From the sequence record NC_054928.1: 64,000 nucleotides of DNA; one strand, written 5' to 3'. The notes under the pieces are model-generated. The model worked only from the letters and a program-made list of their open reading frames with translations, searched no databases and had not been told where the DNA came from. Position 1 is the first letter of the stretch; each line of letters begins with the position of its first letter. Shown here piece by piece: positions 4,805 to 33,387 of this stretch. The translations under genes were made by a program, and so were the position numbers. The stretch is from Escherichia phage vB_vPM_PD112.

Positions 4805-5002
4805 TCATTTTACGCCATTCCAAATTGTTTCAACCACGGATTTTAAACCATTTTGATGAATATCAATTCCGACTACTGTCATCAAATAGATTCCAACTAC
4901 AACTGAACCTAAGGCAAAAATCAGCATGAAAATGAATAAAGCCGGAAAAATATTATCGAAAAACCATTCAATAAATGTAAAAGCACTGCGTTTACGCTTC
5001 AT
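4805..5002 (-). CDS. small membrane protein, 65 aa
   Basis: Track ORF starts on TTG; first ATG with SD GAGGAAAAT gives MKRKRSAF..., one hydrophobic span. Confidence 0.5.
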   Translation of the reverse strand: MKRKRSAFTFIEWFFDNIFPALFIFMLIFALGSVVVGIYLMTVVGIDIHQNGLKSVVETIWNGVK

Positions 5003-5708: not shown

Positions 5709-6266
5709 TTAAATGGAAAGATACCATCCGTTGTAGTTGCTTTTTCTTACAACCTTACGAAGGTCTTCTCTGTCACCGATGAACTTCGGAGTGTACTGGA
5801 TGACACCTGGATGAATTTCTTTAGTGTTGAATATAATTATACAGTCAGCGACTTGGTGATTTAGAATGGGCCCTAGATTTATTCCAGAACCATATGGATA
5901 CTCTCCGCTGCATCCGGTTGTTACCGAAATCCAACGTGAGTCAGTTTGATGTGTCTTAACTTCTACACGAAGCCCACAGTATTTTGGATGCGCCAATACA
6001 TCCCATGCATATGTGTACGGATCATCGACATCTTCTTGACCTTTGTTAACATACCCGCTCAGCCAATCTGCTACAAAAAATTCTGCGTACACAGCGATAC
6101 GGCATCTTTCGATAACTTCTGCCTTATCTTGATTTGGGTTTTGTTTTAAAGAGTATCTTGCTGTATCAGCAATTTTGGCCTTCATTTCACTAGTCAAGTC
6201 ACTGTTCGATAGGGTAAATGTCGGAATCTGAAACAGTCTCTGTAACCCAGGATTCGTTTTCTGCAT
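5709..6266 (-). CDS. denB: DenB, endonuclease IV
   Basis: 185 aa, the T4 DenB length; position between ndd cluster and rIIB. Confidence 0.7.
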   Translation of the reverse strand: MQKTNPGLQRLFQIPTFTLSNSDLTSEMKAKIADTARYSLKQNPNQDKAEVIERCRIAVYAEFFVADWLSGYVNKGQEDVDDPYTYAWDVLAHPKYCGLRVEVKTHQTDSRWISVTTGCSGEYPYGSGINLGPILNHQVADCIIIFNTKEIHPGVIQYTPKFIGDREDLRKVVRKSNYNGWYLSI

Positions 6267-23599: not shown

Positions 23600-23796
23600 T
23601 TTGAATGCTCTATAATTAATTTTAAGGCTTCTTCACTTACAAAAATTTCGTCAGGGCTTTCTTCTGCAACCCAATCAACCGCACGAAGCTGATTAGATAA
23701 GAGCTCGTATGTGAGCTCCTTGTCATAATTTTTAAATAGCTGGTCAATACGTTTCTTGTGGGCTTTCTTAAGTTGACGTTTATTTAAACGAGCCAT
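23596..23796 (-). CDS. hypothetical protein, 66 aa
   Basis: Track ORF, ATG start. Confidence 0.5.
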   Translation of the reverse strand: MARLNKRQLKKAHKKRIDQLFKNYDKELTYELLSNQLRAVDWVAEESPDEIFVSEEALKLIIEHSK

Positions 23797-24311
23797 TAAT
23801 AACCTCGGTCTTGACGTTCAAAATTATGTTTATTTTTCAAATAATAAAGTTTAAAGATTTCTTCCGCATTCATTCCAAGGCCAGCAAACATATTTAATAC
23901 GAAATGAAATATATCCACAAGCTCAAATTTAATTTCGAGCTGATCTTCTGGGGACATTTCATCAATGCGTTTTTCTTGCGCTTCAATATAACGTGCTTTC
24001 CATTTTTTCCAAACTGCCGATGCATCTTTTTCACCACGTGACATTTCACCAAGAGAAGTCAGAAGTTCGCGGAATTCATCGTCAATGCAGTCTTTTTGTT
24101 CACGCATCCAAGAAACAACATCACCGGCAGTTTCTAATTTATCTGGATGATAGCAGTATTCGCGGTCATTTGCTAAACGAACCTGTAAAGATTTCTGCAT
24201 ATCAAGCATAACTTGCAGAGGGTCTTTTTCATCACCGAGAATATCCCAGTATTCATTTTGAGCTTTATCAGCGCCTTCGATCAGATGACTACATTCGTTG
24301 AAATGTGGCAT
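23796..24311 (-). CDS. 56: dCTPase-dUTPase (MazG-like pyrophosphatase)
   Basis: 171 aa from first ATG (track adds a TTG extension); T4 gp56 length; position next to soc and dam. Confidence 0.8.
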   Translation of the reverse strand: MPHFNECSHLIEGADKAQNEYWDILGDEKDPLQVMLDMQKSLQVRLANDREYCYHPDKLETAGDVVSWMREQKDCIDDEFRELLTSLGEMSRGEKDASAVWKKWKARYIEAQEKRIDEMSPEDQLEIKFELVDIFHFVLNMFAGLGMNAEEIFKLYYLKNKHNFERQDRGY

Positions 24312-29616: not shown

Positions 29617-29961
29617 TTAAAAGAATTTAAATTTTTTCTTTGACCTTTTATTAAATGCATCTTGTAGTTGCATTGTAATACATTTTTCTACATGAGGAGC
29701 TAACTCAGCTTTTCTTTCTTGGTCAAGAACAGCAAAGTCCATTACGACTTTTCCATCAACCCAATCTAATTTTGTCACATACACAATGTGTGTAGAACCA
29801 TCTTCTAGTTTAATGACAATCTCCTGGATAACATTTTCCATGGCAGATTTAATTATCTTAAGAGATTCATTAAAAAGACGTTCTTTTCTTTCTTCTTCCC
29901 CCTCCGAAGAGGGGGATTCATCGATAATTTCTAGATCTAAATCTAAATCATCTTTATTCAT
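29617..29961 (-). CDS. 40: acidic protein, about 114 aa, probably gp40
   Basis: Position between uvsX and 41 as on the T4 map; track start is GTG, first ATG used. Confidence 0.45.
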   Translation of the reverse strand: MNKDDLDLDLEIIDESPSSEGEEERKERLFNESLKIIKSAMENVIQEIVIKLEDGSTHIVYVTKLDWVDGKVVMDFAVLDQERKAELAPHVEKCITMQLQDAFNKRSKKKFKFF

Positions 29962-31129
29962 TAAATTCTTCCATATCACTTAACTGTTCGAGGTCAGTTT
30001 CTAAATCAGCAGCTGATTTACTTTTACTTTCTGGAGATTTAAATTTTTCAACCTTTGAGTTAATCAATTCATCAACTTCAGCTTCAACAATTTCATTACT
30101 ATCAATAGCACCTAACTGATAAGCACGTTTAATAGCATCTCGGAATGGTTGATGCTTAAATAAAGGACCCCAGAATGTAGTGCAGTTGGTATCTTTTGCA
30201 CGCCAAGATTTTTCTTCGCGAATCATCTCACCGGTTTCTTCATCAAGAAATTCACGAGCATACCAGCCATTTTTAGGTTTTACCACGAATCCTAATTCTA
30301 GAGCCATATCTAACAATCCAGAATAAGGATCGATACCACCATCAAATTTAACATCAATAAAGAATTTACTTTTTTCTTTAACGGTACGAGATTTTTCTAC
30401 ATTTAGAACAAATTGATACCCCTGAAGATCAGAACCATCTTTAATCTGACGCTTACCGATAATGAATACAGTATCAGCCGAATACATCGGTCCAGTCCCG
30501 CCTCCCATAACGGTTTTACTAAACATTTCTTGTGTTTCGTATGTATGGTTAATAGCAATACATGGAATATTTTTAGTACTAAAATAGGGAGTTACGATAC
30601 GAAATAAGCTTTTCATTGTTTTAGCTCTAGTCATATCACTAACAACTTTTTCATTTAAAGCATCTTCAGTTTCTTTCTTAGAAGCTAAGTTACCAAGCGA
30701 ATCAATAAAAACGACTACCTTTTCACCACGTTCAATTGCATCCAATTGATTAACCATATCAATACGTAATTGCTCAAGTGATTGAACCGGAGTATGAATT
30801 ACTCGTTCTGGATCAACCCCCATGGATCGCAAATAAGCTGGAGTGATACCAAATTCGCTGTCATAAAACAAACATACTGCGTCAGGATATTGCCGCATGT
30901 AAGATGACACCATTGTTAATCCAAAGTTTGATTTAAATGATTTTGATGGACCTGCCAAAATTAACAGACCAGATTGCATACCACCAGTAATTTCACCAGA
31001 AAGCGCAATATTCATCATAGGAATTTTTGTTCGAACTACATCTTTTTCATTAAAGAATTTAGATGTAGTCAGTTCAGCGGTCAATTTAGAAGTAGAAGCT
31101 TTAATCAAACGAGATTTTAAATCAGACAT
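29954..31129 (-). CDS. uvsX: UvsX recombinase (RecA-like)
   Basis: 391 aa, the T4 UvsX length; Walker A GPSKSFKS. Confidence 0.95.
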   Translation of the reverse strand: MSDLKSRLIKASTSKLTAELTTSKFFNEKDVVRTKIPMMNIALSGEITGGMQSGLLILAGPSKSFKSNFGLTMVSSYMRQYPDAVCLFYDSEFGITPAYLRSMGVDPERVIHTPVQSLEQLRIDMVNQLDAIERGEKVVVFIDSLGNLASKKETEDALNEKVVSDMTRAKTMKSLFRIVTPYFSTKNIPCIAINHTYETQEMFSKTVMGGGTGPMYSADTVFIIGKRQIKDGSDLQGYQFVLNVEKSRTVKEKSKFFIDVKFDGGIDPYSGLLDMALELGFVVKPKNGWYAREFLDEETGEMIREEKSWRAKDTNCTTFWGPLFKHQPFRDAIKRAYQLGAIDSNEIVEAEVDELINSKVEKFKSPESKSKSAADLETDLEQLSDMEEFNE

Positions 31130-31137
31130 ATAATACC

Positions 31138-31803
31138 TTATAATAGTGTTCTTGTTCCACGAAATACTTCGAGCATTCTTGCATAAGATTTATTTGGAAA
31201 TCCAGCCTCAATTGCTAATTTTTTAAGCTTAATAGCACCGGGTTTTCCAGAGTTTTCCCATATTTCTTTAATCTTTTCAATGTTACCCCACATTATTGGG
31301 TCACGTTTATGTGATGGTTTATTTCTATTATAACCATATGGATTATTAAGCAAAGCTTCTTTTCGTCTTGCTTTAGTTTCTTCTGACTGCTTTTTGCCTA
31401 GCTGGACTTTCCGGCAAACATCACTAAATCCAAGATGTTTTGGTTTTCCTTTTTGAGCTTTCGAAATTTTTTCTTTAGTTTCTGATGAAACTCTATAACC
31501 AATTCTTCTACCACCCTCTCCGCCAATTTTTAAATTATAGGTCATAGGATCATTTACAACATCTATTGTTACTAATTCTCTTTCAGCATCCCGGGCTGAT
31601 TTAAAATCTTTATAAAACCCAAGAATGCTTAAATTAAAATTTTTCTTACCATACTTTTTCTTGGCTTGTGCTAATAAAGTTCCTGACCCCAGATAACCAT
31701 CATTTAAGTCATCGGTTGAATGAGTTCCGTAGTAAATTTTATTATTAACTAAATTAGTTATAACATAAGTATAATTATATTTCTTTTCTTTGTGTCTTTT
31801 CAT
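31138..31803 (-). CDS. segA: SegA, GIY-YIG homing endonuclease
   Basis: 221 aa from first ATG; GIY-YIG motif YVITN...KIYYGTHS and NUMOD-like repeats; position after uvsX as in T4. Confidence 0.9.
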   Translation of the reverse strand: MKRHKEKKYNYTYVITNLVNNKIYYGTHSTDDLNDGYLGSGTLLAQAKKKYGKKNFNLSILGFYKDFKSARDAERELVTIDVVNDPMTYNLKIGGEGGRRIGYRVSSETKEKISKAQKGKPKHLGFSDVCRKVQLGKKQSEETKARRKEALLNNPYGYNRNKPSHKRDPIMWGNIEKIKEIWENSGKPGAIKLKKLAIEAGFPNKSYARMLEVFRGTRTLL

Positions 31804-31807
31804 GTCA

Positions 31808-32650
31808 TTAATCAACTGCTATTGGATGAATAGCATTAAACTTATGAAACGCTTCTGATTTTTCTTTGCGCGAAACACACATGCGAAGAACCTTTAATGG
31901 CTCGTCTTCTTCACCCAACGATTTTCGTTTTTCAATATTAGAAGTTTTCCAACGAGCTTGCTCTGGAAATTCTCTATTGATTTGCTCGAGAGCTCTATTA
32001 TGTTTTGAATTACTACGAATTGAACTACATCCGCCAGGAGCTTGTGCTTTTCCGGATACAACCAGATATTTGAACAAGGCCAAATGCGGATAACCTTGAT
32101 TAATTAAATTGAGAAATGCATACATATCTTCGCATAAATCAATTTTTCCATACCCAATTTGTTCTGTTGTAAGTTTTCCAAGGTCATACCATGTATTCGT
32201 GAATCCATATGAATTTTCACGATAATTACCCCAAGATGAAGTAATTTTAAAAATAGGTAGACGAGCATGGCCATGATAATACCCGCAATCCATGGCATCT
32301 TCAACGTATTGAATCAATTCATAGAACTGTTCACGAGTTAATTGATTAATTTTATCTACGCAGCGACGATCATCTTTCTTTCGCATTGAACTCATACGAA
32401 TAGTAGTATCATCATCGATCATCCAAATTCGTTGACCTGCATACATATCAGTAATTGCTTTACGAGTTCCAGCAATTCCATTAACATCATCAGGAATAGT
32501 TACAATTTTAGCTCTAGACCCGTAAGCGTCATAATAAGCTTTTTCTTCATGTTCACGTACTACAATATGAGGTTCATAATCAGTCGGAAACATATCAAGG
32601 GCAGAAACTGCCCCTACACGTTGATAGCTTGGAATTACGAATTGAATCAT
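31808..32650 (-). CDS. GT-A fold (family 2-like) glycosyltransferase in the T4 beta-gt slot
   Basis: 280 aa; FVIPSYQR N-terminus and DxD-like WMIDDDTT; too short for T4 beta-gt (351 aa). Confidence 0.7.
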   Translation of the reverse strand: MIQFVIPSYQRVGAVSALDMFPTDYEPHIVVREHEEKAYYDAYGSRAKIVTIPDDVNGIAGTRKAITDMYAGQRIWMIDDDTTIRMSSMRKKDDRRCVDKINQLTREQFYELIQYVEDAMDCGYYHGHARLPIFKITSSWGNYRENSYGFTNTWYDLGKLTTEQIGYGKIDLCEDMYAFLNLINQGYPHLALFKYLVVSGKAQAPGGCSSIRSNSKHNRALEQINREFPEQARWKTSNIEKRKSLGEEDEPLKVLRMCVSRKEKSEAFHKFNAIHPIAVD

Positions 32651-33387
32651 TTCCACTCACCGTTATAATCTTTTTTCGCAATATGAGTTTCACCAGTTTT
32701 CCACCAATGGTCAACTAAATAAAACTGATTTTCGTAAACATGAAGACTTCCAACGTTCCATATAATAGAACCTGCTTTATATTGCCGCGATGGGTCGCCT
32801 GCATTCAAATCAGATACTAATTTATCTAGTACGTATTTTTGCCATGCATAATCATTACGATAGCCTGCCCAGCAATCATTGCTTCTCATGTTAACAACCG
32901 CATTGATTTTCTTGTCACGAATCAGGTACTGTACTGTATTCGTACACATGAAATCTGACATGCCATCTTTATTGTAGTCAAACTGCATGGATGGACGAGT
33001 ATAAATCATGATACCACGTCGAGAATCAGGATTTTGACCAAGTTCAGCTAAACACATGTCATACTGAGCATAGTTATCTTCTGACCAGATAGCCCAACCA
33101 TAATTCGAGTTAATTTCACCTTTAGAAGATGCTACCTGCTGCCAAATCTTTGGTGTTTCACCTGGAATATCTTTAACAAACAGACTTTGAGACTTATACC
33201 ATTCAAGTTCACGCTGAATGTATTCATCATTAAGAGCGCCAAAAATAAACGGTTCATCTGCTACAAATGATGCGCCAATAATTTCAATAGTTTTAACGCC
33301 AGTTTTATCAACTACGAAATCTTTTTCCTTTAATGCAAGCCCCAAATGAAGACGGATTTCTTCAACTGTCATAGAGTCACTAATCAT
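32647..33387 (-). CDS. 42: dCMP hydroxymethylase
   Basis: 246 aa, the T4 gp42 length; thymidylate-synthase-like fold; N-terminus MISDSMTVEEIRLHL. Confidence 0.95.
   Translation of the reverse strand: MISDSMTVEEIRLHLGLALKEKDFVVDKTGVKTIEIIGASFVADEPFIFGALNDEYIQRELEWYKSQSLFVKDIPGETPKIWQQVASSKGEINSNYGWAIWSEDNYAQYDMCLAELGQNPDSRRGIMIYTRPSMQFDYNKDGMSDFMCTNTVQYLIRDKKINAVVNMRSNDCWAGYRNDYAWQKYVLDKLVSDLNAGDPSRQYKAGSIIWNVGSLHVYENQFYLVDHWWKTGETHIAKKDYNGEWK

Follow-up and report, generated by a model that had tools for sequence, protein, structure and literature searches.

Escherichia phage vB_vPM_PD112 most probably carries a T2/T6-type beta-glucosyl-HMC-alpha-glucosyltransferase in the slot used by T4 beta-glucosyltransferase

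The open reading frame between segA and gene 42 in Escherichia phage vB_vPM_PD112 almost certainly encodes a beta-glucosyl-HMC-alpha-glucosyltransferase of the T2/T6 type, an enzyme whose gene is variously called ba-gt, g-gt or ggt and whose Pfam family is named TAGT. Our analysis covers a 64,000-nt stretch of record NC_054928.1, called the window here, and all positions refer to it unless another sequence is named. A sequence-only reading of this DNA had already proposed that the frame fits the T2/T6 enzyme. That interpretation is correct but not new: hundreds of records already annotate the gene by this name, and publications cover the enzyme as well as its genomic position, fold class and phenotype. 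The copy in the window is an intact, ordinary member of its family.

The reading frame occupies window 31808..32650 on the minus strand and consists of 280 codons and a stop codon, with the ATG at 32650 and TAA at 31808-31810 (Table 1). The coordinates of the 280-aa frame given earlier, between segA and gene 42, are exact, and the strand, which had not been given, is the minus strand. The program-made list of reading frames opens this one at a GTG at 32656, two codons before the ATG. We rejected the GTG and set the start at 32650 because all homologues open with MIQF and because the ATG at this position and the TGA that ends gene 42 overlap as ATGA. This overlap also suggests coupled expression, the two genes probably sharing a transcript and being translationally coupled. 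At the other end, segA begins 4 nt after the stop codon of the transferase gene.

Table 1. Features of the transferase locus and of functionally related genes in the window
Feature	Position	Strand	Basis or remark
CDS, almost certainly beta-glucosyl-HMC-alpha-glucosyltransferase (ba-gt / g-gt / ggt / TAGT)	31808..32650	-	ORF; PF20691; PHROG 842; 98-99% identity to T6, T2 and PP01
FVIPSYQR, N-terminal strand and loop, residues 4-11	32618..32641	-	putative nucleotide-sugar binding element of the GT-A fold
DDD, D79-D81, DxD motif after the fourth strand	32408..32416	-	putative ligand of metal and UDP diphosphate
E174-D175, N-terminus of helix 174-184	32126..32131	-	candidate catalytic base
gene 42, dCMP hydroxymethylase, makes the hmC precursor	32647..33387	-	94% identity to T4 and T6 gp42
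segA, GIY-YIG homing endonuclease	31138..31803	-	216/221 identical to T4 SegA
uvsX recombinase, T4 allele	29954..31129	-	390/391 identical to T4 UvsX, against 90.5% to PP01 UvsX
a-gt, DNA alpha-glucosyltransferase, 400 aa	43793..44995	-	398/400 identical to PP01 a-gt
gene 56, dCTPase / dCDPase	23796..24311	-	tblastn with PP01 gp56: 67% identity over all 172 aa, E 1e-74

Between 31000 and 34400, a consensus scan returned 16 promoter-like sites against 13.5 expected from shuffled sequence, and 3 terminator-like sites were counted against 1.5 expected; neither count is above chance. A GC-rich 9-bp hairpin and the T-rich tract that follows it (TAGGGGCAGTTTCTGCCCTTG ATATGTTTCC) lie on the minus strand at window 32596-32616, in TAGT codons 12-18. 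This terminator-like element, just inside the 5' end of the transferase gene, is conserved in T2 and T6, and the regional count of such sites is, as stated, not above chance.

Identity of the protein was established at the nucleotide, protein and profile levels. An 849-nt stretch covering the gene matches Escherichia phage vB_EcoM_CE1 (ON229909) at 100% identity, and 477 phage records match at 90% identity or more, most of them annotated as beta-glucosyl-HMC-alpha-glucosyltransferase. The encoded protein is 99% identical to that of PP01 and 98% identical to those of three T2 records and of T6 AP018814, in each case over 280 aa, in agreement with the earlier expectation of a T2/T6 enzyme; the ggt product annotated in the second T6 sequence, MH550421, is identical at 255 of 261 residues (98%). 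The representative of protein cluster P0001, which has 485 member sequences, is 99% identical. Profile searches matched PHROG 842, ‘beta-glucosyl-HMC-alpha-glucosyltransferase’ (E 3e-89), and Pfam PF20691, TET-associated glycosyltransferase (38.0 bits against a cut-off of 27.5, E 2e-9, model positions 2-205 of 205). Eleven homologues with identities down to 28% were retrieved from a large protein database, and the precomputed Pfam annotation is PF20691 for nine of them. This is not a chance reading frame, because it is kept in the 477 phage records and matches both PHROG 842 and PF20691.

The likeness to T6 and T2 extends beyond the protein. Their ba-gt genes share with the window gene the length of 280 aa, full-length identity of 98% and the ATGA overlap downstream of gene 42; in T6, T2 and PP01 the transferase sits in the same slot between gene 42 and uvsX, and T6 and T2 have the same partner genes (a-gt, 42 and 56) as the window. 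Differences are few: V50, K92 and I101 of the window protein are found in neither T2 nor T6, Y40, D55 and R106 are common to the window and T2 and differ from T6, and R11 and P251 differ from T2, the window being like T6 and PP01 at both.

The T2/T6 enzyme has been placed in PF20691 under the name TAGT (PMC13216743). This family takes its name from members tied to TET/JBP dioxygenases, whose substrate is 5hmC derived from 5mC within DNA. The window protein is unlike those members: there is no TET, and gene 42 makes hmC at the level of the nucleotide. Because the Pfam match is modest (E 2e-9), the T-even clade is a divergent branch of PF20691.

In T4 the slot holds the beta-glucosyltransferase gene (b-gt, PF09198). 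T4 b-gt resembles TAGT in its position, its UDP-glucose donor, its beta linkage and its hmC-DNA target (PMC13216743), but it has a GT-B fold and an unrelated sequence and acts on bare hmC, whereas TAGT has a GT-A fold and acts on alpha-glucosyl-hmC. It had been argued that T4 beta-gt, at 351 aa, is a different enzyme from the one in the window. Both the length and the distinction are borne out: the T4 gene in this slot is 1056 nt long, the best BLASTP segment between the two proteins spans 8 residues (E 3.4), and a Pfam search found no match to PF09198 in the window protein. For TAGT, two 2026 papers describe synteny with T4 beta-gt as well as a GT-A fold (PMC13390438, PMC13216743). The two genes also differ in their record counts, 29 for T4-type b-gt and 477 for TAGT. 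At megablast sensitivity, the 29 records with b-gt comprise T4 stocks and a few relatives, and ON229909 is absent from them; no b-gt was found at the gene 42-segA locus. Among published genomes most phages pair an alpha-GT or a beta-GT with TAGT, and the T4 pair of alpha and beta enzymes occurs in 6 of 753 (PMC13216743). The T6-type arrangement is thus the common one and T4 the exception.

Structure prediction, proposed earlier as a check, returned a GT-A glycosyltransferase fold. The AlphaFold2 model, built from a 9-sequence alignment, is moderately confident (mean pLDDT 72.9, pTM 0.75), with pLDDT of 82-94 across residues 1-80. It places a strand at residues 3-7 over FVIPSYQR, another at 74-77 with DDD directly after it, and a helix at 174-184. 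Strands and helices follow one another as in a GT-A domain, and DDD comes after the fourth strand. The single Rossmann-like alpha/beta/alpha domain matches solved GT-A enzymes, and nucleotidyltransferases of the same fold rank lower. An AlphaFold3 model of T6 TAGT has likewise been described as GT-A and as a sister group to GT2 (PMC13216743, NAR 2026).

The family-2-like N-terminus and DxD-like motif noted from the letters are present as FVIPSYQR (residues 4-11) and WMIDDDTT (residues 76-83). In the family alignment I6, P7, S8, Y9 and R11 of the former are invariant, and DDD, R11, D175 and a GG.S..R segment show no variation even in the most distant homologues, at 28% identity. Sequence and family-profile searches of PDB sequences found no solved structure of a family member. 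The best PDB profile match is weak (E 0.25) and is to 9jma, AvpGT, a GT2 beta-1,3-glucosyltransferase; here IPSYQR aligns with IPTYNR and WMLDDD with AFLDDD. Together with the invariance of these residues and their position in the model, this alignment supports the motif assignments. The GT2 Pfam family (Glycos_transf_2) gave no match at E <= 1, and the GT2-type GT-A enzymes BcsA, TarP (6h1j), AvpGT (9jma) and GlfT2 are 8-17% identical to the window protein with no significant sequence match. The window protein is GT2-like in fold and not a sequence member of GT2. It also differs from GT2-type enzymes in its basic C-terminal extension and in its acceptor, which for TAGT is a sugar on double-stranded DNA and for GT2 enzymes a glycan or lipid.

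By analogy with other GT-A enzymes, the IPSYQR segment and DDD (residues 79-81) would hold the UDP-sugar and a divalent metal. An inverting reaction, leading from an alpha-linked donor to a beta-linked product, would be in keeping with GT2-like enzymes. The strongest candidate for the catalytic base is D175, an invariant residue at the start of helix 174-184; it could serve as the base in a single-displacement inverting reaction. In its position E174-D175 may resemble the ED / TED motif found in GT2 enzymes. A basic stretch forms the C-terminal 70 residues, with a pI of 9.6 against 5.5-6.1 for the rest of the protein, and pLDDT falls below 50 in segments 132-150 and 191-211. Judging from composition and model, the basic C-terminus and these two loops plausibly contact DNA and the acceptor sugar.

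The two worst-modelled segments (132-150 and 191-211, at about window 32201-32257 and 32018-32080) are also among the most conserved in the family, the conserved residues being PIFKI..W..RENSYGFTNT and the GG.S..R loop. They are likely to be mobile loops that bind substrate.

A whole pathway to gentiobiosyl-hmC is encoded in the window by gene 56, gene 42, a-gt and the TAGT gene. Gene 56 and gene 42 together would yield phage DNA containing 5-hydroxymethylcytosine instead of cytosine, and the alpha-glucosyltransferase would then add the alpha-linked glucose that serves as acceptor for the second one. From its 98% identity to the T6 and T2 enzymes, TAGT is expected to move glucose from UDP-glucose in beta-1,6 linkage onto this first glucose. 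That the product is beta-1,6-glucosyl-alpha-glucosyl-hmC has been shown genetically for T6, whose deletion mutants lose gentiobiosyl-hmC (PMC11078745, PMC13160076). In Tequatrovirus phages that have a-gt and TAGT and no b-gt, alpha-5-gentiobiosyl-mdC was detected by HPLC/MS, and in ten natural isolates with a-gt and TAGT gentiobiosyl-hmC accounts for about 40% to about two thirds of cytosines (PMC13390438). Flodman et al. 2020, consulted for the composition of T6 DNA, do not mention T6.

The type of sugar on hmC decides which host defences a T-even phage escapes or triggers, among them McrBC, GmrSD/BrxU, Brig1, BapA and CRISPR-Cas. T6 without ba-gt has only alpha-glucosyl-hmC and its DNA becomes a substrate of the Brig1 glycosylase in vitro (PMC11078745), and T6 without g-gt becomes a BapA substrate (PMC13160076). 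The earlier suggestion that the enzyme changes glucosylation pattern and restriction sensitivity is therefore documented by these deletion mutants. DNA of a phage with TAGT and without beta-gt would be a mixture of hmC, alpha-glucosyl-hmC and gentiobiosyl-hmC, and such DNA would differ in its sensitivity to Brig1, BapA and other defences that recognise alpha-glucosyl-hmC. The assignment of this phage to the T6 type (alpha-glucosyl and gentiobiosyl), as opposed to the T4 type (alpha and beta), helps in predicting its host range and in handling its DNA. The extent of diglucosylation is not predictable from sequence: the T2 and T6 proteins are 98% identical, and the reported levels of gentiobiosyl-hmC are about 5% in T2 and 72% in T6 (PMC13390438, PMC11078745).

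Both public T6 sequences carry a potentially damaging lesion in ggt, and the lesions are different. In MH550421, codon 10 (about 4950-4952 of that record, corresponding to window 32621-32623) is the amber codon TAG in place of CAG, which is kept in AP018814. The MH550421 gene is annotated from Met20 as a protein of 261 aa; a product starting there would be missing both the first strand and the IPSYQR motif. AP018814 has an in-frame loss of 3 nt in a GAT repeat (corresponding to window 32408-32419) that removes one Asp of DDD and leaves 279 aa. The three T2 records share the substitutions R11H (codon at window 32618-32620) and P251S, and R11 is invariant in the family down to 28% identity. It may be speculated that R11H underlies the low gentiobiosylation of T2 (~5%, against 72% in T6). 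The window copy has none of the amber codon, the Asp loss and R11H.

The assignment has to be weighed against other readings of the same gene. One is that the protein is a divergent equivalent of T4 beta-gt, placing the first glucose in beta linkage directly onto hmC. It shares its slot with T4 b-gt, some records label TAGT genes ‘b-gt’, and solitary TAGT homologues in phages without a-gt and b-gt imply that some family members must use another acceptor (PMC13216743). We nevertheless consider this reading very improbable. The window protein has no sequence similarity to T4 b-gt and belongs to another fold class; it is 98-99% identical to the T6 and T2 enzymes, and deletion in T6 leaves alpha-glucosyl-hmC and removes gentiobiosyl-hmC (PMC11078745, PMC13160076). 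In addition, no beta-glucosyl-hmC was found in related phages with TAGT (PMC13390438). There is equally little chance that the reading frame is a decaying or inactive copy, an idea raised by the damage to ggt in both sequenced T6 stocks, which shows that such damage is not lethal to the phage in the laboratory. The window frame is full length, retains every invariant residue of the family and the ATGA overlap with gene 42, and is 99% identical to the representative of the 485-member cluster, and we rejected a pseudogene for this intact copy.

A further reading accepts the T2/T6-type transferase and concerns how much it does: the protein could be a ba-gt orthologue that contributes little, as in T2, leaving the DNA essentially alpha-monoglucosylated with about 5% gentiobiosyl-hmC. 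T2 and T6 proteins differ at few positions and reach very different levels (PMC13390438, PMC11078745), and Y40, D55 and R106 are shared by the window protein with T2 and not with T6. A T2-like state is unlikely, however: at positions 11 and 251 the window has the R and P of T6 and PP01, R11H being present in all three T2 records, and all 10 of the 10 analysed isolates with a-gt and TAGT had substantial gentiobiosyl-hmC (PMC13390438). A T2/T6-type enzyme that forms gentiobiosyl-hmC remains our preferred reading, and no feature of the sequence speaks against it.

The neighbourhood of the transferase gene is a mosaic. Over window 29954-31830, which takes in the last 22 nt of the TAGT gene, a T4-type uvsX and a T4-type segA (identities in Table 1) are joined to a TAGT gene of the T6/PP01 type, so that TAGT is followed by segA and T4-type uvsX in the window, whereas in T6 it directly adjoins a T6-type uvsX. 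The segA-TAGT junction was found in only 7 of about 480-490 matching phage records. T4 itself (NC_000866) has retained, at about 6237-6263, 23 of 24 nt from the 3' end of TAGT, stop codon included (TTCATCGAATAGCAGTTGATTAA); this remnant sits between the b-gt cassette and segA, immediately upstream of the latter, and aligns to window 31804-31830. In beta-gt phages without segA (Pu-Krd-SF1 and 236Ecol005PP), 12 of 13 nt of this 3' end survive. On the other side of the cassette, T4 diverges from the window within the last five codons of gene 42.

To judge from the alignments, the T4 remnant looks like the scar of a beta-gt cassette that displaced a TAGT gene; one breakpoint of the cassette would then fall within the final five codons of gene 42 and the other about 27 nt before segA. 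A broader scenario, which we offer only tentatively and hold to be somewhat doubtful, is that TAGT is ancestral in this slot and was displaced by the T4 beta-gt cassette, with SegA-driven co-conversion helping to shuffle glycosyltransferase cassettes between co-infecting T-even phages. Neither PMC13390438 nor PMC13216743 mentions segA or the TAGT footprint.

Two partner genes differ from their counterparts in related phages. Gene 42 reads NDCWAGYRNDY at residues ~170-180, where T4 and T6 have NDVVFGFRNDY, and VYENQFY at residues ~217-223, where they have VYSRHFY; elsewhere the proteins are ~94% identical. Gene 56 is strongly divergent, with 67% identity of its dCTPase to that of PP01, against 99-100% for most neighbouring genes. 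Annotations of the transferases are also mixed up in several records. True T4-type b-gt genes are mislabelled ‘beta-glucosyl-HMC-alpha-glucosyl-transferase’ in RB55, RB59 and 236Ecol005PP, and the TAGT gene is named ‘b-gt’ in PP01 and in T2 LC348380. The b-gt gene of 236Ecol005PP is divided over two CDSs, suggesting a frameshift.
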